64,000 nucleotides of DNA from positions 18,468-82,467 of the forward strand of contig CAKORY010000004.1 of NCBI GenBank assembly GCA_934101795.1, written 5' to 3'. The position numbers and the translations under genes are program-made. Shown piece after piece: positions 3,070-59,099 of the stretch. Numbering within the stretch: the stretch's first letter is position 1; each line of letters begins with the position of its first letter. The stretch is from an uncultured Bacilli bacterium. GTDB lineage: Bacteria; Bacillota_I; Bacilli_A; RF39; UBA660. The notes under the pieces were generated by a model. That model saw only the letters and a program-made list of their open reading frames with translations, was not told the origin of the DNA and did no database searches.

Positions 3070-4701
3070 TTAAATTTCTATTTCTTCACCATTAGCGCAG
3101 ATGCAACTAGAAGTACTAGAACTAAGTACTTCGCCACCTGGACAAATATTTTGACAAGTATTATCAATTATATTATTAGAAATACTTCCCCATATAGAAT
3201 CAGTAAAATTTTGAATAAAAGTATACGCTTTAAATTTGCTAATTATATTCATTACGTTATTTATTATAATTTGACTATCTTCTTCGGATATATTTTCAAT
3301 GTTAGTTGCATTACTAAAGTTTTTCTTAGTTACTAAATTATTACCATACTTTTCGTTGTTTTTAATGTCTAAAGTGATATTATAATCATTATAAGTTAAA
3401 TTTACTTTTCCAGAAACATCATTTGTTTTATTATTTTTGCTTGATACTATATTTAAATTACCATTTATTTTGATGTTTTTTGAATTTATTTTAATGTCAA
3501 CATTTGATGTATTTTTCTTTTCACTATTTATTGTAATATCTAAACTTGTATCAGTTGTAGTATAAACAATCATTGCTTTATTATCTGATACTTCAAGTTT
3601 TGCTTGAGCTGGATTGTTATTTTCATCTTTTCCATTAATAACAATTTTTTCTTTTGTTATTTCAACTTCATATTCATCTTCATCACTAGTTATTTTATAC
3701 TTATTTTTATCTATTTTTACACCTTTTATTTCTTTTTCATCACTTTTTATAGTAAAATTTTCTATAGTGTTATTAAGCATTTTAACTTCAATAGTAATTT
3801 TTACATTTTCTAAAGTTATAGCATTTTCTTCAGTTATAATATTAGATAAAGCTTTATCTTCATTAACTAGTTTCATGAATTTATCATTAATTTTGTCTTT
3901 ATTTGTATCATTAATTTCATATGTATAAATAACATTTAAACCATCATATTTTGTATTTAAATTTGCTTCTTTTAAAGCTTCAAATAGGTGTTTTATAATA
4001 TTATTGGCGATTAATTCAATGTCATATTTAGTGAAAGATTTTAACTTTTCAGTATATTCATCTACATTACCAAAAAGATTATCATCACTTTTTATAGTTA
4101 GTACTTTATTAATTATATCTTTGCTATCAATATAGATTTTGTTATTATCAATTGCAAGTTTGCCTGTTAAAGTACCTGTATCTTGTTTTAAGCTTATATC
4201 CATATCAATATAATTATTTTTTAAACTTTGGTTAGATTTTAAACCAATTTCTAAATTATTTAAATCTTTTAATTTGCTTGATGTAGTTGTTAACTTAATA
4301 TTTGAATCACTAACTACATCATATTTATCAATGTTATTTAAGTAATCTTTATTAATTGTTATTCCTTCAAAAACTTTATTTATAAAGGTATTAATATTTT
4401 TAGAACTTTGATCTAAAAAACTTGATGCAGTATATTTATTTTTAATAAATAGATAGCCTCCGATACTAAGTAAAAGTATAATAAATACAATGACTAAAGT
4501 TATAATTAGCCCTTTTTTACTTTTCTTTTCTCTAAAATCTTCAAAGCCTATGTTGTTTTTTTCTTCTTTGGGTAATTCTGCAACTTTGCTACCCATCGCT
4601 ATGTTTTCTGAAGTATCGTTTACTACTTCAGGTGTTGGGTTATTATTTATACCCATTTCATTTTCATTTTTTAATTCTTCATCCATTTTTTTCAACCTCA
4701 C
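3070..4701 (-). CDS. single-pass membrane-anchored Asn/Lys-rich surface protein with Cys-rich C-terminal tail (hypothetical)
   Basis: 543 aa. Short cytoplasmic N-terminus, one TM (GLIITLVIVFIILLLSIGGYLFI), a long low-complexity ectodomain and a C-terminal CQNICPGG...SSCICANG. Lies downstream of dnaJ on the same strand. Confidence 0.5.
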   Translation of the reverse strand: MRLKKMDEELKNENEMGINNNPTPEVVNDTSENIAMGSKVAELPKEEKNNIGFEDFREKKSKKGLIITLVIVFIILLLSIGGYLFIKNKYTASSFLDQSSKNINTFINKVFEGITINKDYLNNIDKYDVVSDSNIKLTTTSSKLKDLNNLEIGLKSNQSLKNNYIDMDISLKQDTGTLTGKLAIDNNKIYIDSKDIINKVLTIKSDDNLFGNVDEYTEKLKSFTKYDIELIANNIIKHLFEALKEANLNTKYDGLNVIYTYEINDTNKDKINDKFMKLVNEDKALSNIITEENAITLENVKITIEVKMLNNTIENFTIKSDEKEIKGVKIDKNKYKITSDEDEYEVEITKEKIVINGKDENNNPAQAKLEVSDNKAMIVYTTTDTSLDITINSEKKNTSNVDIKINSKNIKINGNLNIVSSKNNKTNDVSGKVNLTYNDYNITLDIKNNEKYGNNLVTKKNFSNATNIENISEEDSQIIINNVMNIISKFKAYTFIQNFTDSIWGSISNNIIDNTCQNICPGGEVLSSSTSSCICANGEEIEI

Positions 4702-15011: not shown

Positions 15012-16604
15012 TCAGTTTACTCTGATTGGATCAGTAGCAGTCCCACTTCCTGATTCATATGTTATGGAAGCTTTGAGATTGAAAACTGGTCTCACCGCAC
15101 GCCCAACGCTTGCATTACCGTTGTCCACGCTACCAGCATCATTCACAAGTAACGCATTAGAGGCACCGTCCGCTTCACGGGAAATAGTCCATTCCTGAAG
15201 TCCCATATGCATCCAATTGACACTTGTTGCTACTCTATAATCTTTTGTTACATCACTATTATATCCTAATAATGTCCACTTATCTTGTGGCACTGCATAC
15301 ATATAGTCGCTTAAATACATTGCTCCTATTTTTGCACTATATTCTGTTGTATTATCTGTTGTATTTGTTGTTATGGGATTATTTATTTCATTTTTATATG
15401 TTGTTTTGGCTGGTTGGATTTCTATATTTTCCCATGTGTTTCCGCCAACCTTCCATGTTGTTGTATCTATTTTTTTTGCCCATTCTGCTCCTATTTTAGT
15501 TATGAAATTTGTATTTAAATTTGTTTTATTTAACAAACTTGTACTCCATGTATTTGAACCTTTCCCACTATTTATACTTGTATTATTTTTATAATTCCAT
15601 GAATATCCTGCTATATTGGCTAAATTGTTGCCTTTATAATCTGAATTACTCCAATTATTTGTAGATGCAATAGTAGTATATTTATCATTATAATCTCCAT
15701 CTGTACCTAATAATGCACTTGTTGCATAATCTGCTTTGATTAGTTTTACTCTTTGTTCAGTTTGATTTTCTCCAACTTTATTATCAAATACTCCAATTAT
15801 TCTATATAGATTATCTTCTGGACATGGACTTTCTGTTGAACCAAAACATACATAATTATTTACTTGATCACTTGCTCCAGCATATCTGTATGAATTATCC
15901 TCTGCTCCATTTGTTAGGCTTGCATCATGGTAATAAATACTATTTTCACCTTGGGTTCCTGTATATAGTGATTTTACATAATCTGCTAAAGTTGGATCTG
16001 CTTCTCTTTCATAAGACTTAACTGCAACTCCTGCTGCAAATGTTGTGTTTTGATATTCTGTTGCTTTTTCATCTACAAATAGGTATAAATCATAAGTTGC
16101 ACTACCTTTGTATGGAACTTTATTATTATAAAGTTTAAATATATTACCATAAGTACCAGATAAGCCAGCATTAAGTTCTGTTTTTTCTGCATCAGTAAAA
16201 TTATCTGCATCATCTAAAGAACTTGTAAGTGTACCTTCCACTAAAGCTTCTTTAGAACCTTTTTCAGTTATAATATAATGAATATTTGAAGCTGACAAAG
16301 TATTAGTGTTTAGTGTTGCTAAATAAAGATTAAAACCTACATAAGTATCACAATAACTAGTAACTGTAAAAGTATATGGAGTCGTTTGTAATCCTTTGTT
16401 TCTACTCATAGGATAACTATTAGTTAGTTTTATTGAAGTGGTTCCTTCTAATTTTATTTTAGCACAGCTTGATAAACTAACTTCAGTTATATTTCCACCT
16501 TGATCTATTGGTTTCATAAAAGCCGTTGTAATACTTACAGAAAGTACCACTACTATTAAAACTGCTAGTACACTTAATATAATAATTCTGGTTTTTTTAC
16601 TCAT
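15012..16604 (-). CDS. membrane-anchored surface protein, paralog of 44989-46659, sharing a C-terminal ~300-aa domain and terminal motif with pilin-like proteins
   Basis: 530 aa. N-terminal signal-anchor (IIILSVLAVLIVVVLSV). The C-terminal half is about 70% identical to the second large protein (DYVKSLYTGTQGEN...YRIIGVF...TTWKVGG...AKIGAMYLSDYMYA...VRPVFNLKASITYESGSGTATDPIRVN). Confidence 0.6.
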   Translation of the reverse strand: MSKKTRIIILSVLAVLIVVVLSVSITTAFMKPIDQGGNITEVSLSSCAKIKLEGTTSIKLTNSYPMSRNKGLQTTPYTFTVTSYCDTYVGFNLYLATLNTNTLSASNIHYIITEKGSKEALVEGTLTSSLDDADNFTDAEKTELNAGLSGTYGNIFKLYNNKVPYKGSATYDLYLFVDEKATEYQNTTFAAGVAVKSYEREADPTLADYVKSLYTGTQGENSIYYHDASLTNGAEDNSYRYAGASDQVNNYVCFGSTESPCPEDNLYRIIGVFDNKVGENQTEQRVKLIKADYATSALLGTDGDYNDKYTTIASTNNWSNSDYKGNNLANIAGYSWNYKNNTSINSGKGSNTWSTSLLNKTNLNTNFITKIGAEWAKKIDTTTWKVGGNTWENIEIQPAKTTYKNEINNPITTNTTDNTTEYSAKIGAMYLSDYMYAVPQDKWTLLGYNSDVTKDYRVATSVNWMHMGLQEWTISREADGASNALLVNDAGSVDNGNASVGRAVRPVFNLKASITYESGSGTATDPIRVN

Positions 16605-16633
16605 AAGAAAAATCTCCTTTATTCTATATATAA

Positions 16634-16662
16634 ATTATATAAAAAAAATTAAATTTGTTCAA
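16634..16662 (-). promoter_or_regulatory. putative sigma-A promoter (TTGAAC-17-TATAAT) for 15012-16604
   Basis: Hexamers read on the minus strand about 30 nt upstream of the RBS AAAGGAG. Confidence 0.4.
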
Positions 16663-16697
16663 GTGTTTAATGATAATAAATTTTAAAAATAAAGAAA

Positions 16698-35302: not shown

Positions 35303-36190
35303 TTATTTTATTAATTTATATTCTCTTACTTTTATCCTTTCATCACTGCAATATTCCATGATAAACTTATTATCTTTTCTACAAAGTATAATACCTATTG
35401 TTTTATCTTGCATTGGATTTCTTAAATTCTTATCTATATAATTCATATAAACTTCTATTTGACCTATATGTTCTTTTTTTAGTTTAGTAACCTTTAACTC
35501 AACCACTACATAACAATTAAATTCAATGTTATATAATAGTAAATCAATATAATTATAGCTATCACCTATCTTTATTTGGTATTCATTTGATATAAAACTA
35601 AATGAATTACCTAGTTCTTTTAAAAATGCTGGTATATCTTCAAGAATCATTTTTTGTAACAATTTTTCTGATATTACTTCATAATTAGTATTATTTTTTA
35701 TTATAATTGGATTTTTGATAATATCTTGAAGATTTAATTTTTCTTCATTAATTAACTTTAGTTTAGTTTGTTCATCTAATCTTTCATATTCTTTATTTTT
35801 AATACGTTTGCGAAGTTCACGCACTGATAAATTTTGCTCTTTACAAATTGTTATATAGTAATTAATTTTGTTTATATTATCAAACCATATTAATTCACAA
35901 TAATGTGAGTATGTCAAAAAGTCCGACATTGTCGGACTTTTTGACAAAACTTCATAAAATCTTCTTGCATATTTTAATCTGGTTACTGTATATCCTTTGC
36001 CAAATTCTTTAGTTAACTTATCTGAATATTCTTTGATAATACCTTCACCATAATGTTTACCTGCTTCACTTAGTAGTTTTCCAACGTTATAATAAGTTGT
36101 TAAGTCACTTTTGTTTTTTGAATAATCCTTTACCTTTTTAGTTATCTCATTATTTAGTATTTCGTTTTTTATCTCATTATAATAATTCAT
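35303..36190 (-). CDS. DUF1016/YhcG-family PD-(D/E)XK nuclease-like protein, tandem copy a
   Basis: 295 aa. N-terminal YYNVGKLLSEAGKHYGEGIIKEYS...KGY..RLKYARRFY matches the DUF1016 N-domain. C-terminal IDLLLYN-x10-VVELK-x3-LKKEHIGQ is the D..E.K nuclease core. Confidence 0.7.
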   Translation of the reverse strand: MNYYNEIKNEILNNEITKKVKDYSKNKSDLTTYYNVGKLLSEAGKHYGEGIIKEYSDKLTKEFGKGYTVTRLKYARRFYEVLSKSPTMSDFLTYSHYCELIWFDNINKINYYITICKEQNLSVRELRKRIKNKEYERLDEQTKLKLINEEKLNLQDIIKNPIIIKNNTNYEVISEKLLQKMILEDIPAFLKELGNSFSFISNEYQIKIGDSYNYIDLLLYNIEFNCYVVVELKVTKLKKEHIGQIEVYMNYIDKNLRNPMQDKTIGIILCRKDNKFIMEYCSDERIKVREYKLIK

Positions 36191-37058
36191 ATTCTCTTAC
36201 CTTTATCCTTTCATCACTACAATATTCCATGATAAACTTATTATCTTTTTTACAAAGAATAATACCTATCGTTTTATCTTGCATTGAATTTCTTAAATTC
36301 TTATCTATATAATTCATATAAACTTCTATTTGACCTATATGTTCTTTTTTTAATTTTGTAACCTTTAACTCTACAACTACAAAACAGTTAAATTCATAAT
36401 TATACAAAAGTAAATCAATATAGTTATAGTTACAACCAATTTTAATTGGATATTCATTTGATATAAAACAAAATGAATTACCTAGTTCTTTTAAAAATGA
36501 TGGTATGTCTTCAAGAATCATTTTTTGTAACACTTTTTCCGATATTACTTCATAATTAGCATTACTTTTTATTATAATTGGATTTTTGATAGTATCTTGA
36601 ACTTCTAATTTTTCGTCTTTAATTAGCTTTAGTTTTGTTTGTTCATCTAATCTTTCATACTCATTATTTTTAATACATTCTCGAAGCTGTCTAACAGAAA
36701 GACTGTTTTGTTCACACATTGTAATATAATATTTTATTTTAATAGTATCATTTAATTTAAACAATTCACAAAAATGACTCCATGACAAAAAGCCAGACAG
36801 TGTTTGGCTTTTTTGAAAATTATAGAACTTTCTCATATTTTTTAAATTACTTAAACCATAACCTTTACCAAATTCTTTTGTTAACTTTTTTGAATATTTC
36901 TTAATAATACCTTCACCATAATGTTTACCTGCTTCACTTAAAAGTTTTCCAACGTTATAATAAGTTGTTAAATCACTTTTGTTTTTTGAATAATCCTTTA
37001 CCTTTTTAGTTATCTCATTATTTAGTATTTCATTTTTTATCTCATTATAATAATTCAT
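36177..37058 (-). CDS. DUF1016/YhcG-family PD-(D/E)XK nuclease-like protein, tandem copy b
   Basis: 293 aa. The first ~55 and last ~170 residues are almost identical to copies a and c, while the middle is about 50-60% identical. The start overlaps the stop of copy c by 14 nt (GAATATGAATTATTATAATGAG). Confidence 0.7.
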   Translation of the reverse strand: MNYYNEIKNEILNNEITKKVKDYSKNKSDLTTYYNVGKLLSEAGKHYGEGIIKKYSKKLTKEFGKGYGLSNLKNMRKFYNFQKSQTLSGFLSWSHFCELFKLNDTIKIKYYITMCEQNSLSVRQLRECIKNNEYERLDEQTKLKLIKDEKLEVQDTIKNPIIIKSNANYEVISEKVLQKMILEDIPSFLKELGNSFCFISNEYPIKIGCNYNYIDLLLYNYEFNCFVVVELKVTKLKKEHIGQIEVYMNYIDKNLRNSMQDKTIGIILCKKDNKFIMEYCSDERIKVREYELL

Positions 37059-37929
37059 ATTCTCTTACCTTTATCCTTTCATCACTGCAATATTCCATAA
37101 TAAATTTATTATCTTTTCTACAAAGAATAATACCTATCGTTTTATCTTGCATTGGTTTTCTTAAATTCTTATCTATATAATTCATATAAACTTCTATTTG
37201 ACCTATATGTTCTTTTTTTAATTTAGTTATCTTTAATTCTATAACTACATAACAATTGAACTCAATGTTATATAATAGTAAATCAATGTAATTATAGTTG
37301 CAACCAACTTTAATTGGATATTCACTACCTACAAAAGAAAATGAATTACCTAACTCTTTCATAAATTCTTCAATATCTTCAAGAATAATTTTCTCCAATG
37401 CTTTCTCAGATATTACTTCATAATTAGCATTACTTTTTATTATAATTGGATTTTTGATAGTATCTTGAAGTTTTAATTTTTCATCTTTTATTAGCTTTAG
37501 TTTTGTTTGTTCATCTAATCTTTCATACTCATTATTTTTAATGCGTTCTCGAAGCTCACGTTTTGACAAATTATTTTTAATAGTAACATTAATATAATAG
37601 GTTATTTTTTCCTTATTATTAAGTGGTAATAATTCTATATAATGACTCCATGTTAATTGGTCAGCCACCGGCTGACTTTTTCCAAATTCATAAAATAATC
37701 TCATATATTTTAAAGTAGTAACTGAATAATTTTTATTTAATTCCTTACTCAACTTTTTTGAATATTCCTTGATAATACCTTCACCATAATGTTTACCTGC
37801 TTCACTTAAAAGTTTTCCAACGTTATAATAAGTTGTTAAGTCACTTTTGTTTTTTGAATAATCCTTTACCTTTTTAGTTATCTCATTATTTAGTATTTCA
37901 GTTTTTATTTCATTATAATAATTCATCAT
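37045..37929 (-). CDS. DUF1016/YhcG-family PD-(D/E)XK nuclease-like protein, tandem copy c
   Basis: 294 aa with the same architecture. It lies 19 nt downstream of comEC. Confidence 0.7.
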   Translation of the reverse strand: MMNYYNEIKTEILNNEITKKVKDYSKNKSDLTTYYNVGKLLSEAGKHYGEGIIKEYSKKLSKELNKNYSVTTLKYMRLFYEFGKSQPVADQLTWSHYIELLPLNNKEKITYYINVTIKNNLSKRELRERIKNNEYERLDEQTKLKLIKDEKLKLQDTIKNPIIIKSNANYEVISEKALEKIILEDIEEFMKELGNSFSFVGSEYPIKVGCNYNYIDLLLYNIEFNCYVVIELKITKLKKEHIGQIEVYMNYIDKNLRKPMQDKTIGIILCRKDNKFIMEYCSDERIKVREYELL

Positions 37930-41960: not shown

Positions 41961-42797
41961 ATGAAACGAAAAATAACTATTTTACTTATTATGACATTTA
42001 TTATACTAATTTTTAATAATTATGATATTGTTTTGAAAAGTACTTTGGATGCTACCACTATATGGCTTAATAGGGTTTTTCCAAATCTTTTTATAATGAT
42101 TATTATTCAAGACTTATTAATTAATTTAGATTTTGCATCATTTTTTAAAAATACTGCTGTTTACATTTTTATTATGTCTCTTTTAAGTGGAACACCTTCT
42201 GGAACATATATTATTTCTAAATTAAAACAGCAAAATATAATTAGTAAAGAATATGCTAATACTTGTTTGATTTTTACATTTTTTGCTAATCCATTATTTT
42301 TATATTCTATATTAAATTCTATATTCTTAAGTAAATTTATAACTATTAGATTAATGTTAATTTTATATTTAACAAATCTTTTCTTGTATTTTATATATAA
42401 AAAAGATTTACCATCAAATGGTAAATCTATAAATGCTAATGAAATTAATTTATCTTCTTCAATTAAAACTAGTATAAATACCACTATTACTGTTCTTGGA
42501 GTTATAACATTTTACCTTATATTATCAAATATTATAATTACTGAATTTAATATTATTTATCCATTTAATATTTTCTTTAAAGGATTTTTAGAAATGACTC
42601 AAGGGCTGGCAGCACTAATTAATGCTAATATAAAGTTCAAAGAAATTATATCAATGATATTTATATCTTTTGGGGGTTTTTCTATTCATACTCAAGTTTC
42701 ATGTATCTTAAATGAGGCTGATTTATCATACAAATACTTTTTTAAAGGTAGGATAATACAAACTATTTTAGTGGTTTTGCTAACAATTATAACCTAG
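41961..42797 (+). CDS. YlbJ-like sporulation integral membrane protein (nucleoside-recognition/Gate domain-like)
   Basis: 278 aa, 7-8 TM. Divergent from the ylbL-like gene, as in the Bacillus ylbJ-ylbL neighbourhood. Assigned by context plus a weak motif (GFLEMTQGLAAL). Confidence 0.4.
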   Translation: MKRKITILLIMTFIILIFNNYDIVLKSTLDATTIWLNRVFPNLFIMIIIQDLLINLDFASFFKNTAVYIFIMSLLSGTPSGTYIISKLKQQNIISKEYANTCLIFTFFANPLFLYSILNSIFLSKFITIRLMLILYLTNLFLYFIYKKDLPSNGKSINANEINLSSSIKTSINTTITVLGVITFYLILSNIIITEFNIIYPFNIFFKGFLEMTQGLAALINANIKFKEIISMIFISFGGFSIHTQVSCILNEADLSYKYFFKGRIIQTILVVLLTIIT

Positions 42798-43355
42798 ACA
42801 AGTAATATTTTTGTTAAAATCTTGTGATTTACCAATATAACTTATTAAAATATCATCTAATAAATTATTATTTCCAAATTTATTTTTATCATTTGTTGTG
42901 TGCACTTCAATATCTATTTGTAATGTATATATTCTTTTATTTACTTCATTTATTTTATCATCACTATAGCTTACATTTGCTTTTTTTGTATATATTTTTC
43001 CTCCATCTATTGTCCAATTTCGTGTGCTATTACTTGAACTTTTATAAGTAAATTTGTTTTCAGTTGCATCTATAATACTAGTTTTATTATTTTTAAAAGT
43101 AAATTTTATTTTTAAATTATTACTCGTAGAACCTGTACTATCAATATCAGTTATAACATTGTTATTTAAATCATTTTCTATCATTCTTAATATTTCTGCT
43201 CTGTTAATTTGATTGTCTTTGGCATATACATTATTTGTTTCTGTATTATTTAAATCTACTAAAAGTCTCATTAGAAAGATTAAAATAATAGATATTAATG
43301 CAATACTTATTACAAGTTCTAAAAGTGTACTTCCTCTTTTATTCATTTTTTTCAT
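42780..43355 (-). CDS. prepilin-type pseudopilin / minor pilin
   Basis: MKKMNKRGSTLLELVISIALISIILIF: a G|STLLE class III signal. 191 aa. Confidence 0.65.
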   Translation of the reverse strand: MKKMNKRGSTLLELVISIALISIILIFLMRLLVDLNNTETNNVYAKDNQINRAEILRMIENDLNNNVITDIDSTGSTSNNLKIKFTFKNNKTSIIDATENKFTYKSSSNSTRNWTIDGGKIYTKKANVSYSDDKINEVNKRIYTLQIDIEVHTTNDKNKFGNNNLLDDILISYIGKSQDFNKNITCLGYNC

Positions 43356-43358
43356 AAA

Positions 43359-44201
43359 TTACCCCACTATATATGGATCAGCATTTGTGCCAGTCCCACT
43401 TAAATATCTAACACTTCCCTTTAGGTAAAATGTTGGTTTAATATTTTTATTATTGCTTGCAATATCAGTATCTATAGTACCATCATTTTTTAGATAATAA
43501 CTATATACTAAATTACTATTTGTTCTTGTTATAAACCACATATTACTTGTAAAAAGCCAGTTATTTTGATTTTTTACTGTTTCATCATATATGCTTTCAT
43601 TACCTGCATAAATATAATCACTTATATATGGTAAACCTATCTTTTGAATAGTGGTAACACCATTATTTTTTTTATCTCCGATTTCATAATTAATTATTTC
43701 TTTACCAGGTTTAGTTTTAAAAGAATTATCTAAACCACCAACATACCATGTGGTAGTTTCTATTAATTCAATATTATCTCCTAGGTTATTTATAAATTCA
43801 GTATTTAAATAAGAACTTACTGATGATTCTTCATAGTTATTTGAACTTTTGCTATCAAAGGCTACATTTATAATACTATCATTTTTTATTAGTTTTACTT
43901 TACCATCAATTACTCCGATTATTCGATATGTTTCATTATTAAACTTAATATAATTATTGGGGTTACTTCCATTAAACCTATATGTATTATCTATTTTTAA
44001 CATATTTATTTCTTCATATCTATTAATAAGATAATTAGCAAAATTAGTATCACTTATCTCATTTTTTATTGTTTTCTTCATATTATTTAAAAGATTTCTA
44101 CTTGTAACCATATTAACTATTATAAACATCATTAGAGTTAAGAATACTAGGAAAAATGAATAAATTACTGTTACGGATATAAAACCTTTGCTATTTTTCA
44201 T
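43359..44201 (-). CDS. pilin-like protein with the C-terminal domain shared with the two large surface proteins
   Basis: 280 aa. N-terminal KGFISVTVIYSFFLVFLTLMMFII (G|F, no Glu5). C-terminal YRIIGV.DGKVKLIK, TTWYVGG, ISDYIYA, ...KPTFYLKGSVRYLSGTGTNADPYIVG. RBS AAGGAGG. Confidence 0.55.
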   Translation of the reverse strand: MKNSKGFISVTVIYSFFLVFLTLMMFIIVNMVTSRNLLNNMKKTIKNEISDTNFANYLINRYEEINMLKIDNTYRFNGSNPNNYIKFNNETYRIIGVIDGKVKLIKNDSIINVAFDSKSSNNYEESSVSSYLNTEFINNLGDNIELIETTTWYVGGLDNSFKTKPGKEIINYEIGDKKNNGVTTIQKIGLPYISDYIYAGNESIYDETVKNQNNWLFTSNMWFITRTNSNLVYSYYLKNDGTIDTDIASNNKNIKPTFYLKGSVRYLSGTGTNADPYIVG

Positions 44202-44273
44202 AATTGCCTCCTTATTTTATTATTATTGGATCAGATTTAGTACCATTTCCAGATGCATAAGTTATGGAAGAGA

Positions 44274-44906
44274 TTAAATTGAAGCTTGTGTTTTTCCATA
44301 CATACCGACTGAAGCATAATATGTTTGACATCTTTTATCCATTCCTGGAGTGCACTTAATAATATCTCTTTCTTTATTTTTATTTTCTTCCGTTGTATCT
44401 TCAAGTTTATTTGCATATTCAATAACTAAATAGTAATCATACTTTGTATCACTTAAAGAATTAACATATTTTTGCATATTATAACTTAAATTATTTATTG
44501 ATGATTTACAATATTTTTCAGTGCCTTCATAACAGTTATCAAACATTTCACTTTTTACCAATATCATTTGATTTATTTTGAAACTTTTAACTATTTCTTC
44601 TAGAGAGTATATTCTGTTATCAGCTTTTTCTACTTCGTTAAATAATGCATCAAAACCTGTTCCTAAAGTAACTATATATGTATCATTAAAATAATTTTTC
44701 TTTACGTTTTCTATGTCACTATATTCTTCTAGAAATTTTCTAACATAATTTGTATAATAAATATAAGCTGGATCATCATAATATAATCTTACTTTTTCAT
44801 CACTTATTATGGCATTGTAGGTACTATAAAGATATAAAAGTGATGCAGATAGTATTACTACAGTTATAATTGTTTCCACAAAAGCAAACCCTTTTTTACT
44901 TCTCAT
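44274..44906 (-). CDS. prepilin-type pilin, apparently 3'-truncated by a frameshift in an A5 tract (full-length frame would end at ~44213)
   Basis: MRSKKGFAFVETIITVVILS: a G|FAFVE class III signal. The -1 reading frame after GGAAAAACA encodes NTSFNLISSITYASGNGTKSDPIIIK*. This matches the family's C-terminal motif and ends right at the next gene's RBS. Confidence 0.6.
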   Translation of the reverse strand: MRSKKGFAFVETIITVVILSASLLYLYSTYNAIISDEKVRLYYDDPAYIYYTNYVRKFLEEYSDIENVKKNYFNDTYIVTLGTGFDALFNEVEKADNRIYSLEEIVKSFKINQMILVKSEMFDNCYEGTEKYCKSSINNLSYNMQKYVNSLSDTKYDYYLVIEYANKLEDTTEENKNKERDIIKCTPGMDKRCQTYYASVGMYGKTQASI

Positions 44907-44988
44907 TTTATCACTTACCTTACTATATATAGTTTATCAAAACCTAAACAAAAAATCAACCTATATAGATTGATTTTTGTGTTAGCCA

Positions 44989-46659
44989 CTAGTTTATACG
45001 AATTGGTGAATTTTGAGTTCCATCGCCTTCGACATAAGTTACGGAAGGTAAAAGATTGAAGACTGGCCGAACAGCATACGTATCAGAGTCAACATAGCAG
45101 TCGTTGTCGGTGATGTTGCCGGTGTAATTCACAAAATTCCCATGGTCATCCCAGTCCGCATTACGGGTAATTGTCCATTCTACTAGCCCCATATACATCC
45201 AATTGACACTTGTGGCAGCTCTATAATCTTTTGATGCATCATCATTATAACTTTCTAATGTCCACTTATCTTGTGGTGTTGCATACATATAGTCACTTAC
45301 ATACATTAAGCCTATTTTTGCACTATATTCTGTTTCTGAAGAGTATTCACCAGATTCTGGTTTTACCACTTCATTTTGGTATGCATTTTTGGCTATTCCT
45401 CCAGCCAAATACTCCAAGTTCACCCCTCCAACCTTCCATGTTGTTTCTGCTATTTTAGCTGCCCAGTCATCTCCTATTTTTGTTATGAAGTTAGTATTTA
45501 AATTTGTTTTATTTAAATTTGATAAACTCCATATATTTTGACCAGACTTATTCCAATTATATGCTGCTATATTAGCTAAATTGTTTCCTTTATAATTGGT
45601 ATTATCCCAATCATATGAAGGATCAGAAGTAACAGTTGTATATTTATCTCCATAATCTCCATCGGTACCTAATAATGCACTTGTTGCATAATCTGATTTG
45701 ATTAGTTTTACTTTACCTCCAAATACTCCGATTATTCTATATAGATTATCAGCTGGGCATGGCGTTGCATTACTTCCAAAACATACATAATTATTTACTT
45801 GATCACTTGCTCCAGCAAATCTGTACGAATTATCTTCAGCATCTAAAACAGTTCCAACAGGATATGTTTTTATTTCATGTTCATGTGTTTCTTGATTAAA
45901 AAATTCAAATTTAAATTCAGAAGCACTTTTGATTGTACCATTGTGATGATAGATGCCATTTTCTCCTTGAGTACCTGTATATAATGATTTTACATAATCC
46001 GTTAATAGGTTTATTTTTTCTTTTTGTATCATAACCTTTGCACTTAATCCACTTGATGCATTAGCTGTTTGATCTCCTTCATAGTTTACAAATGTAAGCT
46101 TTAGTGTATATTGTTCTTCTTTTGCATCTGTTGTTGCTGTTATTGTTTTCTTATTTGCTATAGTTATTAAACCATTTGTTGTTGTAACATCAAAACCTGA
46201 TATACTTTTGTTTTCTCTATCTTGAACTACTTTATGAGTTAGTCCTGATATTTCTGTTACTTCATTTCCATCTGGTCCTGTAACTGTTAATATAAGTTCT
46301 GGTTTATCTTCACCTAATGTATATTTGAATGTATTGTTTTCAATATTAAAATATACATAATAGTTATCTGTTGCTTCATTTGTCTTATTATTTGCAACTA
46401 ATGTTGCTTTAGCAAATGTTTCTCCAGATAAACTTCCCTTTTCTTGACCAAATGATGATTGGTCTGCATATAAACTTATAGCACTACCTGTTGTAAATGT
46501 AAGCATATCTGTTGTATATGTTGTAACCTTAACCTCCGTAGAACTTGATGCTCCCCCTTGTGCTTTAAAATATGCAAATGTTGCACCAACTACTAAAGTA
46601 ATTAATGTAACAACTGCAACTATACTAAGAATTAATGCTTGTTTTTTATTTTTTTCCAT
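44989..46659 (-). CDS. membrane-anchored surface protein, paralog of 15012-16604
   Basis: About 556 aa starting at MEKNKKQALILSIVAVVTL (ATG 46659). The track's longer ORF begins upstream by translating the poly-T tract as FFFFFF. C-terminal ...AVRPVFNLLPSVTYVEGDGTQNSPIRIN. Confidence 0.65.
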   Translation of the reverse strand: MEKNKKQALILSIVAVVTLITLVVGATFAYFKAQGGASSSTEVKVTTYTTDMLTFTTGSAISLYADQSSFGQEKGSLSGETFAKATLVANNKTNEATDNYYVYFNIENNTFKYTLGEDKPELILTVTGPDGNEVTEISGLTHKVVQDRENKSISGFDVTTTNGLITIANKKTITATTDAKEEQYTLKLTFVNYEGDQTANASSGLSAKVMIQKEKINLLTDYVKSLYTGTQGENGIYHHNGTIKSASEFKFEFFNQETHEHEIKTYPVGTVLDAEDNSYRFAGASDQVNNYVCFGSNATPCPADNLYRIIGVFGGKVKLIKSDYATSALLGTDGDYGDKYTTVTSDPSYDWDNTNYKGNNLANIAAYNWNKSGQNIWSLSNLNKTNLNTNFITKIGDDWAAKIAETTWKVGGVNLEYLAGGIAKNAYQNEVVKPESGEYSSETEYSAKIGLMYVSDYMYATPQDKWTLESYNDDASKDYRAATSVNWMYMGLVEWTITRNADWDDHGNFVNYTGNITDNDCYVDSDTYAVRPVFNLLPSVTYVEGDGTQNSPIRIN

Positions 46660-46728
46660 ACATACCACGTCCTTTTTAACTAACAAACTCACGCATAATA
46701 TTCTTACGTTACTATATAAGTATACCTG

Positions 46729-46747
46729 AAAAAAAAAAAAAAAAAAA
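46729..46747. repeat. homopolymeric A19 (T19 on the minus strand) ~70 nt upstream of the surface-protein start codon
   Basis: Counted directly. It is the longest homopolymer in the window by far. Confidence 0.9.
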
Positions 46748-46831
46748 GCATCACATTTACACATTTTATAAAATTGTACACAAAAAAACCATTACAATAT
46801 TTTTTTCATATAATAAATATAGGTGATTACT

Positions 46832-47011
46832 CATGAAGTGTAATGGTCCTCGTAATGGTTTAACTATTATAATTTTATTTATACTCGGAGTATTAATTTT
46901 TTATCAAGCACTAATTACTTTAATACTCCCCTTTAGATTTAATATTTTTATTTTACTTTTAGAAATATCTTTATTTTTCTTCTTCATCATGCGTATTATA
47001 TGGCCTTATTA
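46832..47011 (+). CDS. possible small hydrophobic protein (59 aa), below the ORF-track length threshold
   Basis: ATG preceded by RBS AGGTGA at 6 nt. MKCNGPRNGLTIIILFILGVLIFYQALITLILPF... with two predicted TM helices. Overlaps the 3' end of the convergent gene by ~40 nt. Confidence 0.3.
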
Positions 47012-47858
47012 ATTCTTCAGTTTTAAAAACATAATCAATTAAATTACTTACATTTTGACATCTTTCAAATTCATTATTACTCTTTTTACTTTCTGGTGGC
47101 AGAGTTATTAAAATAAATAATAATTTCTTTTCATAATCAAGTAAAGGAAACTTATACATATATCTTGATAATATTTCACTAAATTCTATATTATTCCATT
47201 CTTTTTTATAAAGTTTAGCTATATCTATAACAGGTGTATCTATTATATAATTATCCCAGCTTATAAGTTTATTGTCTCTTAAATGATTAAGTTCTAAATT
47301 ATTATGTAAAGTTGCTACCCTGATTTTATTTTCATTTGTAACCAAAGAGTACCAATCATCTAATTCTTCTAAAGCATACTTTAGTGATGCATCAAGTTTA
47401 TAATAATTTCTTAAAAACAAATAATTTGATGGTGACTCATAATCTTCATTAAAACCAATTTCATATAAAGTATTATAATAACTTGTTAAATAATTAATAT
47501 TACTTTTAATATTTTCATATATAGTTTTAAATTTATCATTACTTACTTCCTTAAAATAGCTAGTTTTATTATGTAAACTAGCTATTAATTCTATTAAATC
47601 TTCGCATTTTTGTTCTTTAGGTAGTTTTGTATCTTCAACATACTCAAAGACATTAACTTCATCTCTGGATGCATCAATAATCTTAGGAAAGTTTATAAAT
47701 CCACGATTAGTTAGATAATTATATAATTCATTTATATCTTTATTCTTAGGTTTTATTATAAAATCTCCACTGGTAGTTTCTAAAATAGTGGTTTTACCTT
47801 TAATTGTATATCTATATGGCTTATAAATAGCTTTTAGCATTTCTAAACTTTTATTCAT
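46971..47858 (-). CDS. CotS/YsxE-like kinase-fold spore coat-associated protein (catalytic motif degenerate)
   Basis: 295 aa with an APH/CotS-like layout. The catalytic loop reads LHNNLELNHL instead of HGDLHxxN. Lies immediately downstream of a SpoVID-like gene, as with Bacillus spoVID-ysxE. Confidence 0.45.
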   Translation of the reverse strand: MNKSLEMLKAIYKPYRYTIKGKTTILETTSGDFIIKPKNKDINELYNYLTNRGFINFPKIIDASRDEVNVFEYVEDTKLPKEQKCEDLIELIASLHNKTSYFKEVSNDKFKTIYENIKSNINYLTSYYNTLYEIGFNEDYESPSNYLFLRNYYKLDASLKYALEELDDWYSLVTNENKIRVATLHNNLELNHLRDNKLISWDNYIIDTPVIDIAKLYKKEWNNIEFSEILSRYMYKFPLLDYEKKLLFILITLPPESKKSNNEFERCQNVSNLIDYVFKTEELIRPYNTHDEEEK

Positions 47859-54119: not shown

Positions 54120-55952
54120 TCACTCCTTGTTTAAATATTCATTTATTACTCTATTTAATTCATCTTTACTTATTGGTTTGGCTAAGTAATCATTAAATCC
54201 ATCTGCTAAGTATTTTTCCCTCATACCTGTTAAAGCGTTTGCTGTAAGGGCAACAGTTGGTATATTAAAATCTGGTATTTGCTCTTTTATTTTATGAAGT
54301 GTTTCTACTCCACTTAACTTTGGCATCATATCATCCATTAATATTAAATCATATTTTTTGCCATTTTTCAAGTTATCTATGCAAATAAAGCCACTTTCAA
54401 CACATTCTGTAGTAATACCATATGTACCCAGTAATCTTTCTGCAACTTTTAAATTAATTTTATTATCATCTACTACTAAAACTAATTTATTATTTACTTT
54501 TATGTCATCATTTTTAACAACTGGAGCATCAACTTTTATAGTTGGATTTTTAACAATTCTTTGGTCTATTGAAACTGTAAATTTAGAACCTTTTCCATAG
54601 ACACTTTGAACTACTATTTTTCCGTGCATTAAATCTACTAACTTTTTAGTTATAGCAAGTCCTAATCCAGTTCCTTCAATAGTTACGTTATCTTCTAAAT
54701 CTAATCTTTCAAATTTATTAAATAACTTATTAATATTTTCTTGCTTAATACCAATACCGGTATCTTCAACTGATATTATTAATCGACATACATCATTTTT
54801 AACAACTGAATTTATACTAAATGTTATGCTTCCTTCTTTGGTATATTTAACAGCATTAGTTAATATATTTACACAAATTTGTTTAAGTCTTGATGCATCA
54901 CCATATAAAACACGAGGAATAGTATCATCTATTTTTGTAATAAGTTCAATAGGTTTATCTCCAAGTCTACCTTTTGTTAATGCAATAAGTTCTGTTGTAA
55001 CTTTATTAAAGTCATATTCAGTATTAACTATTTCTAATTTACCAGCTTCAATCTTCGATATATCCAAAATACCATTTACTATTTCAAGTAGATTATCACT
55101 AGCCATAACAATATCATTTACTTCATCTTTTGCACTATCTGGTAAGTTTTTATCTTCCAAAAGCATATTACTAAAGCCCACGATTGCATTAAGTGGGGTC
55201 CTTATTTCATGTGACATACTTGATAAAAATTCTGTTTTAGCGGTATTTGCTTTTTCTGCAGCAATCTTTGCTTCATTTAACTGGGCAATCATTTTAACAT
55301 CTGGGTTATCAATTGTAAAATACATAATATAGTTAACAAAGCAAACCACTATTGAAACCCAAATTAAATATGGATTTATATTAACTACTACTAAAACTCC
55401 AATTAATAATAAAAGCATTACTAATACAAAGAAATATCTTTTATCAACTTTTTTAAGATTAAATAAAACTATTAATAAAGTCATAATGAGATAAACTCCA
55501 CACAATATTTCAGCCATTAAAACTGCAGAACCATCGGCTGTATATGCGTTTCCAGATTTTATTACATCAACTTTACCAAATAACATAAATATAAAAATTA
55601 TTAAATCTGTAACTAAAAATGGAATAGAAAATTTCCTATAATGTGATTTAAAAACTGGAAGGGTTATTATTGCAATGTAAGAAAATATACAATTACAAAT
55701 TAATATCAGCATTACAAAATCTATTTTATTTAAAATTGTAATTATAAAATCTAAGTAACCTGGAGTATAAAAGAAGGCAATAGATTGAAGTATTGTTACA
55801 ATTAAACTATCTACAAAACTACACACAATCATGAATGAATACATTTTATTTTCTAATAAATCTACTCTTTCTTTAGAGAAATAAACATAACACATTAAAC
55901 CAGAAAAAAATAGTGAACATACTGGCAATAATATACCTTCCATACTTACCAC
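54120..55952 (-). CDS. hybrid sensor histidine kinase (multi-TM sensor - HisKA - HATPase - REC)
   Basis: About 6 TM N-terminal region, H-box [13 protein letters not shown] boxes, and a C-terminal receiver ([10 protein letters not shown]...[14 protein letters not shown]). Confidence 0.85.
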   Translation of the reverse strand: MVSMEGILLPVCSLFFSGLMCYVYFSKERVDLLENKMYSFMIVCSFVDSLIVTILQSIAFFYTPGYLDFIITILNKIDFVMLILICNCIFSYIAIITLPVFKSHYRKFSIPFLVTDLIIFIFMLFGKVDVIKSGNAYTADGSAVLMAEILCGVYLIMTLLIVLFNLKKVDKRYFFVLVMLLLLIGVLVVVNINPYLIWVSIVVCFVNYIMYFTIDNPDVKMIAQLNEAKIAAEKANTAKTEFLSSMSHEIRTPLNAIVGFSNMLLEDKNLPDSAKDEVNDIVMASDNLLEIVNGILDISKIEAGKLEIVNTEYDFNKVTTELIALTKGRLGDKPIELITKIDDTIPRVLYGDASRLKQICVNILTNAVKYTKEGSITFSINSVVKNDVCRLIISVEDTGIGIKQENINKLFNKFERLDLEDNVTIEGTGLGLAITKKLVDLMHGKIVVQSVYGKGSKFTVSIDQRIVKNPTIKVDAPVVKNDDIKVNNKLVLVVDDNKINLKVAERLLGTYGITTECVESGFICIDNLKNGKKYDLILMDDMMPKLSGVETLHKIKEQIPDFNIPTVALTANALTGMREKYLADGFNDYLAKPISKDELNRVINEYLNKE

Positions 55953-57260: not shown

Positions 57261-59099
57261 TTATTCTTTGTTTAAATATTCATTTATTACTCTATTTAAT
57301 TCATCTTTACTTATTGGTTTAGCTAAATAATCATTAAATCCATCTGCTAAGTATTTTTCCCTCATACCTGTTAAAGCATTTGCTGTAAGGGCTATAGTTG
57401 GTATATTAAAATCAGGTATTTCTTCTTTTATTTTATGAAGAGTTTCTACCCCGCTCATTCTAGGCATCATATCATCCATTAATATTAAATCATATTTTTT
57501 ACCATTTTTGAGGTTATCTATGCAAATAAAGCCACTTTCAACACATTCTGTAGTAATACCATAAGTTCCCAGTAATCTTTCTGCAACCTTTAAATTGATT
57601 TTATTATCATCAACTACTAAAACTAATTTATTATTTACTTTAATTTCATCACTTTCAATTACTGGCTCACTAGTTGTTATTGTTGGATTTTTAACAATCA
57701 TTTGATCAATTGAAACTGTAAACTTAGAACCTTTTCCATATACACTTTGAACTACGATAGTTCCATGCATTAAGTCTACTAACTTTTTAGTAATTGCTAA
57801 ACCTAGTCCTGTTCCTTCAATGGTAATATTTTCTTCTAAATCTAGTCTTTCAAATTTATTAAATAACTTATTTATATTTTCTTGTTTAATACCAATTCCT
57901 GTATCTTCAACTGCTATTATAAGTCTACAAACATCACCTTTTATAACTGAATTTACACTAAATGTTATACTTCCCTTTTTAGTATATTTTACAGCATTAG
58001 TTAAAATATTTACACATATTTGTTTAAGTCTTGTTGCATCACCATATAACACTTTAGGTATTACTTCATCTACTTTAGTAATTAATTCTATTGGTTTATC
58101 TGCAATTCTTCCTTTTGTAAGAGATATAAGTTCAGTTATTACTTTATTAAAATCATATTCACCATCAACAATTTCTAATTTACCAGCTTCAATTTTTGAT
58201 ATATCCAGTATACCATTAACTATTTCTAGTAAATTTTCTGATGCCATAACAATATCTTTTACTTCATCTTTTGCACTATCTGGTAAAGTTTTATCATCTA
58301 AAAGCATATTGCTAAAACCTACGATTGCATTAAGTGGTGTTCTTATTTCATGAGACATATTTGATAAAAACTCTGTTTTAGCAGTATTAGCTTTTTCTGC
58401 TTGTGTCTTCGCAGCATTTAATTCACTAATTAATTTAACATCAGGATTTTCAATAGTAAAGTACATTATCATTACAACTAAAGATAAGAGATAATTAATT
58501 AAAAAAGCGGATGGGAATAAACTTTGAACTAAAAAATTAATAAGCATTAGTAATACAAAAATATATAAAGGTCTTAATTTCTTTCCTTGAATATTTTTTC
58601 TATATTTAATTGCTATTGTTATAGAATAAAGAATAAGAATAAAACAAATAATATAAGTTAGTAATACAGGAAAACCTTTGGGTATAATAACATTTTCTAA
58701 AACATCAAAATTAATTGGTAAAATTAAAATAAATGGTACAGTAAAGATTAAAAATAAAGCAAATGTATAAAAAGTATTCATCATTTTACTTTTATAATTT
58801 TCGCTATTTGGTAAACTTATACATTTTATATAATAAGAAAATAATAAAAGCCATAACACAAAATAAACAAAAACAAATTTAGATGCTATAGAATACATTA
58901 AACCATTAATATCGTAACCATACTTATATAATAGACATGTTGTTATATCCATAGATAATCCAAAGATAGTTAAAAGTAATAAATACTTATAAATTCTTGT
59001 TTCTATATTATTTACTCTTTCTTTAGATAAAAAATTATATGTAAAAAGAATTATTATAATTAATGCACTTATTGAGAAATATAATCCCATCACTACCAC
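57261..59099 (-). CDS. hybrid sensor histidine kinase, paralog of 54120-55952 with a different sensor domain
   Basis: 612 aa. The C-terminal ~400 aa (from [10 protein letters not shown]) is ~90% identical to the other kinase and the DNA is ~90% identical over ~1.2 kb. The N-terminal multi-TM domain is unrelated in sequence. Confidence 0.85.

Follow-up and report, generated by a model that had tools for sequence, protein, structure and literature searches.

The window, that is, the whole 64 kb stretch of DNA that was analysed, has a G+C content of 26.8% and carries on its minus strand a gene of 556 codons (44989..46659). A ysxE/CotS-like gene (46971-47858) and a LysM-like gene lie upstream of it. 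Downstream are three genes for pilin-like proteins of 210, 280 and 191 aa with G|F..E-type N-termini (42780..44906, minus strand), of which the 280-aa protein contains a DUF6273 module, and beyond these ylbJ, an S16 protease gene, comEA and comEC. Just after the stop codon of the 556-aa gene, an AT-rich hairpin followed by a U run was found (44945..44978, minus strand; dG −13.6 kcal/mol, z −3.3), which had been missed by a terminator scan that requires GC. Judged by its fold and U run it is probably an intrinsic terminator, so that the 556-aa gene is probably monocistronic. In the divergent direction, a gene for a small hydrophobic membrane protein of 59 aa (46833..47012, plus strand) with the Shine-Dalgarno sequence AGGTGAT overlaps in antisense with the 3' end of the ysxE-like gene. 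This protein has 78 homologues (57–67 aa; lowest identity 54%) and is listed in identical form on 51 contigs, which indicates that the ORF is a real, conserved gene. Elsewhere in the window, three tandem paralogous YhcG/DUF1016 PD-(D/E)XK nuclease genes were observed between miaA and comEC (35303-37929, minus strand), as well as two similar hybrid histidine kinase/receiver genes close together (54120-55952 and 57261-59099, minus strand).

The 556-aa product showed no Pfam or NCBIfam match. It comprises an N-terminal hydrophobic helix, a beta-sandwich N-domain of ~190 aa and a DUF6273-like C-terminal domain. Residues 1-215 represent the N-terminal module of 998 cluster representatives at 50% identity, the total lengths of which are very variable. 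When this module was modelled by AF2 with a diverse alignment, a hydrophobic helix (residues 3-34) and a beta-sandwich were predicted with a pLDDT of 91; the full-length model was unusable (pLDDT 39.5). A Foldseek search of the N-module against solved structures gave no significant match (best E 1.3e-3, TM ≤0.28). The GAT[FY]AYF motif (GATFAYF) after the hydrophobic helix presumably resembles SipW/TasA-type signal peptides. A SipW-cognate signal or a TasA-type fibre identity was nevertheless not supported, because no NCBIfam or Pfam match for SipW/TasA membership was obtained even at E≤10, and the TasA fibre 8aur ranked only 13th in the Foldseek search with a non-significant TM of 0.27. The features of a type IV pilin were also absent from the 556-aa product, which gave no N_methyl match and has no G before the hydrophobic stretch. 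Its C-terminal half is related to the DUF6273 modules of the neighbouring 280-aa pilin-like protein and of an in-window paralogue (15012-16604, minus strand; 530 aa with a diverged N-domain), and a precomputed PF19789 match exists for some homologues. In phage receptor-binding proteins, DUF6273 is reported to be C-type-lectin-like (PMC10743442). From the N-terminal hydrophobic helix, the beta-sandwich domain and the DUF6273-like C-terminal domain, we reasonably infer a secreted or surface lectin-like protein, and the 'surface protein' of the original prediction is kept in this predicted sense only.

Several observations were made on the gene family as a whole; related loci are given here as L numbers. 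The family is systematically fragmented in MAGs, and many contigs also break inside family genes (L004, L028, L045, L052 and L063/L065). In a sister lineage (L070-L074, L076, L077 and L079), comparison with window 44274-46659 revealed domain shuffling at the locus: a C-terminal remnant of 148 aa is joined to the promoter and ATG, and the N-terminus of the 210-aa pilin (95% identical) heads a pilin-DUF6273 fusion of 507-509 aa. The idea of silent cassettes and gene conversion (L008, L010 and window 15012-16604) was dropped, because these are complete paralogues with diverged N-domains of their own.

Between the 556-aa gene and the divergent small gene, 19 consecutive A residues are found on the plus strand (46729-46747), corresponding to T19 on the minus (coding) strand. 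It had originally been predicted that this 19-A run lies ~70 nt upstream of the ATG and directly 5' of a TATACT -10-like hexamer, and that no other homopolymer in the 64 kb exceeds ~8-10 nt. The letters of the plus strand bore this out: the distance to the ATG at 46659 is 69 nt, the hexamer is separated from the tract by the 4 nt CAGG, and all other homopolymers are of 8 nt or less, with eight runs of exactly 8. Under a first-order Markov model, only 6e-5 (A) and 4e-3 (T) runs of 19 nt or longer are expected in 64 kb. T19 is a genuine isolated outlier in the window. Over 342 kb from related loci, A/T runs fade out by ~12 nt, with the exception of the runs of 15-21 nt in the promoter class described here. 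Every homopolymer of at least 15 nt in this DNA belongs to that class, and the distribution of run lengths is bimodal. A homopolymer of hypermutable length that is an outlier for its genome is characteristic of contingency loci, and T19 has both properties.

Relatives were collected via the cluster member and the neighbouring genes, as an exact look-up of the window's 556-aa protein gave no match. They were labelled uncultured Bacilli, 'Tenericutes bacterium UMGS1410' or 'Clostridium sp. CAG:609', and all came from gut metagenomes. A module consisting of a short upstream block, the tract, the leader and the N-terminal domain was found in four genomic contexts in these related uncultured gut Bacilli: the neighbourhood of ysxE in the window's species and its sisters; the L002 context, where a uracil-DNA-glycosylase-like ORF, recognised by eye only, precedes it; the L005 clade, where it is flanked by genes for a formate/nitrite transporter and a sigma factor; and L058. 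Similarity between contexts begins ~16 nt ahead of the tract and extends over the leader and the N-domain (~90% identical), and the C-terminal domains differ.

The mechanical ORF call reads through the tract, giving a 591-aa ORF (44989..46764, minus strand) that begins with MCKCDAFFFFFFQV... and includes FFFFFF, just as the original prediction had warned. The homologues, however, all begin with M-x-KNKK (MEKNKK), 35 codons downstream of the mechanical start, and the upstream frame is broken in the T18, T17 and T15 alleles. The 5' extension (46660..46764, minus strand) is therefore spurious, and the database cluster representative of the gene is 556 aa long. These observations ruled out a tract within a coding region. 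As to an artefact of assembly or sequencing, contigs of three independent assemblies end in the poly-T tract (L034 1-20, L055 and L064). On the other hand, the tract with the same flanks was recovered in four independent assemblies of the window's species and in more than ten assemblies of relatives, obtained with different assemblers, and therefore it is not an assembly artefact. Taken together, an explanation of T19 by coding sequence or by artefact has hardly any probability left. In practice, ORF callers translate the tract and assemblies break at it.

The position of the tract was conserved in the relatives and its length was variable. Within the window's species, T19 in the window was accompanied by T18 in L001 and L063 and by at least 17 T in L064, the contig of which ends in the tract (3612-3628). 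The tract was T19 in L002 and at least 20 T in L055 of the same context, again with the contig end in the tract (3370-3389). In the L005 clade, it was T17 in L005 (= L066), T18 in L057, T15 in L067, T17 in L068 and T8-C-T8 in L069. The pure tracts were thus of 15, 17, 17, 18, 18, 18, 19 and 19 nt, with three contigs cut in the tract and with fixed flanks. Two VOFC01 contigs (T18 and T21) contained other homopolymer indels in coding sequence and were treated as unreliable. Over all strains, the range is given as 15-21. Between the window and L063, the tract was the sole difference, with 0 mismatches in 3.8 kb, and between the window and L001 it was the only indel, accompanied by 3 substitutions in 7.7 kb. 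A length that is polymorphic between strains, with conserved flanks, is another property of contingency loci and was found here; the original prediction had held that a tract of invariant length in deep coverage and across strains, with no effect on expression, would speak against a switch, and between these strains the tract is not invariant. It should be noted that, for a 17-20-nt homopolymer, a short-read metagenome assembly can give a consensus length that is wrong by 1 nt, so that 19 versus 18 within the window's species could be technical, and only the 15/17/18 spread of the L005 clade exceeds this error. This spread and the three contig ends in the tract are suggestive of real instability, short of proof.

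On the coding strand, the order of elements is TGTGTAAATGTGATGC-T19-CAGG-TATACT-TATATAGTAACGTAAGAATATTATG...AAGGA-N10-ATG. The linker CAGG (46728-46725) and the hexamer TATACT (46724-46719), together 46719..46728 of the minus strand, align with TGGTATTAT, TGATATTAT and TGGTAATAT of tract-less paralogues. They are followed by a conserved leader (46660..46718, minus strand) with the core TATATAGTAACGTAAGAATATTATG, which includes a TATTAT (46700-46695) and the ribosome-binding site AAGGA (46674-46670). The leaders of the tract-less paralogues L004, L028, L061 and L062 are homologous to that of the window, and the T-rich stretch TTTTCTTTTAAATTTATTTA of the paralogues together with their extended -10 (TGnTATTAT, within TGGTATTAT/TGATATTAT/TGGTAATAT) aligns with the tract and CAGGTATACT. 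In 13 tract-bearing or orthologous promoters, the hexamer was TATACT, TATGCT, TACACT or TATATT, with T-12, A-11 and T-7 invariant. In L034, a distant family member from a rabbit-gut MAG, a tract of at least 20 T abutting TGATAATAT lies only 33 nt from the ATG, which means that it must occupy the spacer and the -35 position; the tract and the sequence downstream read T≥20-GATAATAT, with a -10-like hexamer directly 3'. The promoter of the in-window paralogue (16605..16665, minus strand) has the canonical, unambiguous form TTGAAC-N17-TATAAT with a T8 in the spacer, which is one of the eight 8-nt runs of the window, and the shared TATATAG motif comes after its TATAAT. The alignment with the paralogue promoters, the in-window TTGAAC-N17-TATAAT, the conservation of the hexamer and the spacing in L034 led us to take TATACT as the putative -10 element, with the tract (46729..46747, minus strand) filling the spacer and the -35 position. 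TATTAT is a second -10-like hexamer and equally conserved. If it were the true -10, TATACT would be the -35 and the tract would be at the UP-element position as in sabA, which is the less favoured assignment. As far as homology and conservation point out the -10 candidates, the tract would be promoter-proximal with either choice.

No -35-like hexamer was found 5' of the tract in any context, the sequences there (TGATGC, AAAGGC, TAAGGC and CAATAC) being unlike TTGACA. The 556-aa gene promoter also lacks a TG extension of the -10, and it was not called by a simple sigma-70 scan, which misses it for want of a -35. A promoter without TG extension and -35 hexamer should be weak and dependent on upstream sequences. 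The missing -35-like hexamer and a spacing of 18-25 nt between the upstream block and the -10 ruled out a classic -35/-10 spacer switch. The tract had been predicted to form the spacer/UP region of the promoter; its placement 5' of a conserved -10-like hexamer was confirmed, but it is not a classic -35/-10 spacer. A sporulation-sigma promoter (GTATA...AATATTA), considered by eye only, was dropped, and so were weak by-eye matches to CodY or cre sites in the window's 5' flanking sequence, which are absent from the other contexts. The motif TATATAGTAA[C/G]GTAAG was observed twice, once within the 556-aa gene's leader (46714-46699, minus strand) and once shortly before the first gene for a pilin-like protein (44929-44914, minus strand), and may be a regulatory site shared by the two genes.

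We also considered that the tract might be transcribed from a promoter further upstream, such as ATTACA-N17-TATATT (46844-46816), so that U19 in a long 5' UTR would exert its effect in the RNA, by way of pausing, attenuation, slippage of RNAP or the binding of a protein. This promoter is a 9/12 sigma-70-like match on the minus strand, and the leader is highly conserved from the tract to the ATG. But such upstream matches occur at chance level (14 found versus 8.0 ± 3.1 in shuffles), and ATTACA-N17-TATATT itself lies in sequence absent from the other contexts, where the similarity stops ~16 nt 5' of the tract. The leader gave no Rfam match and its RNA fold was not significant (z −0.14), by which a known RNA element was ruled out. 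In L034, no more than 33 nt lie between the ATG and the tract, which adjoins the -10. A role of the tract in the transcript is therefore regarded as improbable.

Directly 5' of the tract, the weakly conserved 16-nt block TGTGTAAATGTGATGC (46748..46763, minus strand; consensus tTGyGTAAa.GtaA.GC) constitutes the 5' limit of the module common to the genomic contexts. Between the four unrelated contexts, 8-11 of the 16 positions are identical in pairwise comparison, versus ~31% expected. Candidate functions of the block are an UP-like or activator box or, in one clade, a hairpin arm. In the L005 clade (UMGS1410-like; L005/L066 1395-1429), the block and the first ~6 Ts of the tract form a 13-bp hairpin with dG −10.8 and z −3.0, in which an upstream AAAAGGG arm pairs with the first Ts. 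This hairpin is kept in L067 and L069 with partly compensating substitutions. It was also observed that this terminator-like hairpin overlaps the promoter. In the window, the hairpin adjoining the tract has a dG of −4.5 and a z of −0.15, no better than shuffles, and a separate hairpin with a T7 lies ~35 nt further upstream of the tract. The terminator scan of the window gave no call at the tract, where the stable hairpin followed by a U run that defines an intrinsic terminator is lacking. A terminator tail was thus ruled out for the window by the empty scan and the lack of a stable adjacent hairpin; a partial role is retained for the L005 clade.

The tract is not universal in the family. Paralogues with the same N-terminus but no tract were found at L045, L052, L004, L028 and L060-62 and at window 15012-16604 (T8 only). 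Sister lineages (~96% nucleotide identity) carry the interrupted T-rich stretches TTTTATATTTGTTATTTT-CGTG and TTTTATGTTTGCTCTTTTCGTT in place of a pure tract. The distance from the GC to the -10 is 21-22 nt in the interrupted alleles (L058, L069 and L070-79), with 22 nt in the sister lineages and 21 nt in L069, and 18-25 nt with pure tracts. Interrupted alleles with constant spacing would look like the expected stabilising ('locked') mutations of a contingency tract. The divergent 59-aa ORF is 100% identical in sister lineages without a pure tract, implying that the tract is not there for its sake. Of the earlier remark that the tract also lies upstream of this small ORF, the gene itself is thus upheld as real and conserved, but it is independent of the tract. 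At the window's genomic site by the small ORF, L078 (1-430) has a different cassette with GGC-T20-GATG-TAAAAT, and its gene is homologous to that of L034 (1-60). These two other cassettes of the same protein superfamily have tracts of their own (T20 and T≥20), in both cases ~T20 directly 5' of a -10-like hexamer.

As the main alternative, such observations might be accounted for by a static architecture, in which the tract is merely a T-rich spacer/-35/UP-like region, or in some contexts the U-tail of an upstream terminator, that has been homogenised by slippage and drifts neutrally in length with no regulatory consequence. The interrupted T-rich stretches of paralogues and sister lineages, which have the same length and occupy the same place, are consistent with it, as are the use of the first tract Ts by the L005-clade hairpin, conserved in L067 and L069, and the paralogue leaders, in which a terminator hairpin and T-tail stand directly 5' of the -10. 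However, neutral runs of this length should decay, whereas pure tracts of 15-21 nt are maintained in two unrelated cassettes and in no fewer than three contexts, and nothing else in these genomes exceeds ~12 nt. A U-tail would need only ~7-9 nt, and in the window the insignificant adjacent hairpin, the separate hairpin with T7 further upstream and the empty terminator scan speak against it. We consider a static architecture possible but, on balance, rather unlikely.

The best explanation appears to be that T19 is a slipped-strand, promoter-embedded element for tuning or phase variation, to which we assign a probability of roughly 55%. This reading is based on the outlier tract, its fixed position and variable length, the conserved flanks, the locked alleles and the recurrence upstream of related exported proteins. 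According to it, T19 would be a hypermutable simple-sequence repeat within the promoter of the 556-aa gene, located at about -17 to -35 and linking the core promoter to the weakly conserved 16-nt block. The promoter would be intrinsically weak and dependent on upstream contacts, either alpha-CTD/UP-like ones or those of an unknown activator. Slipped-strand mispairing during replication would add or remove a T, and each step of one T would shift the upstream DNA by 1 bp and rotate it by ~35 degrees relative to the -10. The shift and rotation would raise or lower transcription in the manner of a rheostat or an on/off switch, and the outcome would be subpopulations that differ in the display of a secreted or surface lectin-like protein. 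The tract thus appears closer to a linker of variable length, joining the -10 to the upstream block, than to a -35/-10 spacer. The transcription start, the length dependence of transcription, the heterogeneity within a population and the surface exposure of the product are what we infer from the DNA. The candidate slipped-strand switch proposed originally is hence supported in its outlier tract, its promoter position and the length differences between strains, but not as a switch of the classic spacer type.

Besides the possible 1-nt error in the consensus lengths and the equally conserved TATTAT, three further points weigh against the slipped-strand reading. The interrupted alleles drive the same gene, so that a pure tract is dispensable for promoter function. 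No -35 hexamer or known factor site was found that would make the tract length matter. Finally, the L005-clade hairpin implies that part of the conservation of the tract may reflect a terminator function.

A wider and more tentative extension is that ~15-21 T abutting the -10 may be a lineage-wide regulatory device of uncultured Mollicutes-related gut Bacilli, acting on selected members of an uncharacterised and very large secreted-protein family. The hallmarks of this family are a new N-terminal beta-sandwich (~1000 clusters at 50% identity) and shuffled, C-type-lectin-like DUF6273 modules, which also occur on pilins. Tract-length switching and domain shuffling at the same loci would then make up a commensal 'phasome', in which the tract links a conserved upstream box to the -10. 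At present we regard this extension as speculative and rather unlikely.

To our knowledge, nearly all documented cases of phase-variable promoter repeats come from pathogens in culture, among them Helicobacter, Neisseria, Mycoplasma and Streptococcus. The signature described here is found in a lineage of uncultured human-gut Bacilli represented by metagenomes only, upstream of a predicted lectin-like secreted-protein gene beside a pilin cluster. If the slipped-strand reading is true, stochastic switching by repeat slippage would shape surface display in abundant commensals and complement the invertible promoters known from Bacteroides. Deep metagenomes that already exist could be used to read off the length of the tract directly.

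A mutational expression switch of this kind is already known in pathogens (sabA, vlp and R28). The poly-C tracts of Bordetella fim2/fim3 and the promoter repeats of Neisseria and Haemophilus also form a variable linker between an upstream element and the -10, and act via a known activator (BvgA) or a defined -35; for the tract of the window, neither a -35 hexamer nor a known factor site was found.

In the vlp system, one tract length, 17, is reportedly the ON state. Neither a tract between recognisable hexamers with an ON spacing of ~17 bp nor a tract in every family member, which are the features of the vlp type, was found for the window's gene and family. In the Mycoplasma hyorhinis vlp poly(A) promoter switch (Citti & Wise 1995, summarised in PMC10502178), a homopolymer of ~17-20 nt lies directly 5' of the -10 of surface-protein genes, in an AT-rich host of the Bacilli/Mollicutes radiation and in a multigene family with variable C-terminal parts, all of which resembles the present locus. 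However, the vlp tract is a poly-A on the coding strand, is the -35/-10 spacer and is present in every vlp gene, whereas the window has a coding-strand poly-T with no recognisable -35 and a spacing of 18-25 nt, in one of several paralogues per genome.

In the Firmicute S. pyogenes M28, a T tract in the Spy1336/R28-Spy1337 intergenic region varies from 8 to 13 T in natural populations, and transcription is switched between 9T and 10T (PMC7098570). As in the window, this tract stands in the intergenic region of two divergent genes and ahead of a gene for a surface protein, a predicted one in the case of the window, but it is much shorter, and its divergent partner is a regulator that is co-controlled by the tract (PMC7098570), in contrast to the small ORF of the window, which is conserved independently of the tract.

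The closest mechanistic parallel appears to be provided by the T/A tracts of H. pylori, which alter how the core promoter is aligned to UP-like DNA further upstream, or else stand in for the -35 (PMC4081817). They include the sabA rheostat and the tracts of hopZ, babB and further genes, which lie between the -35 and -10 or take the place of these elements (PMC4081817, PMC2715451). The sabA tract lies 5' of a defined -35, whereas the tract of the window most likely replaces the -35 and spacer; the arrangement typical of sabA, with the tract directly 5' of the -35 and UP-like boxes upstream, would hold here only if TATTAT were the -10 and TATACT the -35, with the 16-nt block being present 5' of the tract. 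The host also differs, being a low-GC Gram-positive-type gut commensal known from metagenomes only, in which the effect of the tract is a predicted one. Nevertheless, the two share a coding-strand poly-T (13-19 nt in sabA) in the promoter, putative in the window, of an adhesin-type gene, with a length that varies between strains, few classical promoter elements and a conserved A/T-rich sequence 5' of the tract, and in both a change of geometry relative to UP-like DNA has been proposed.
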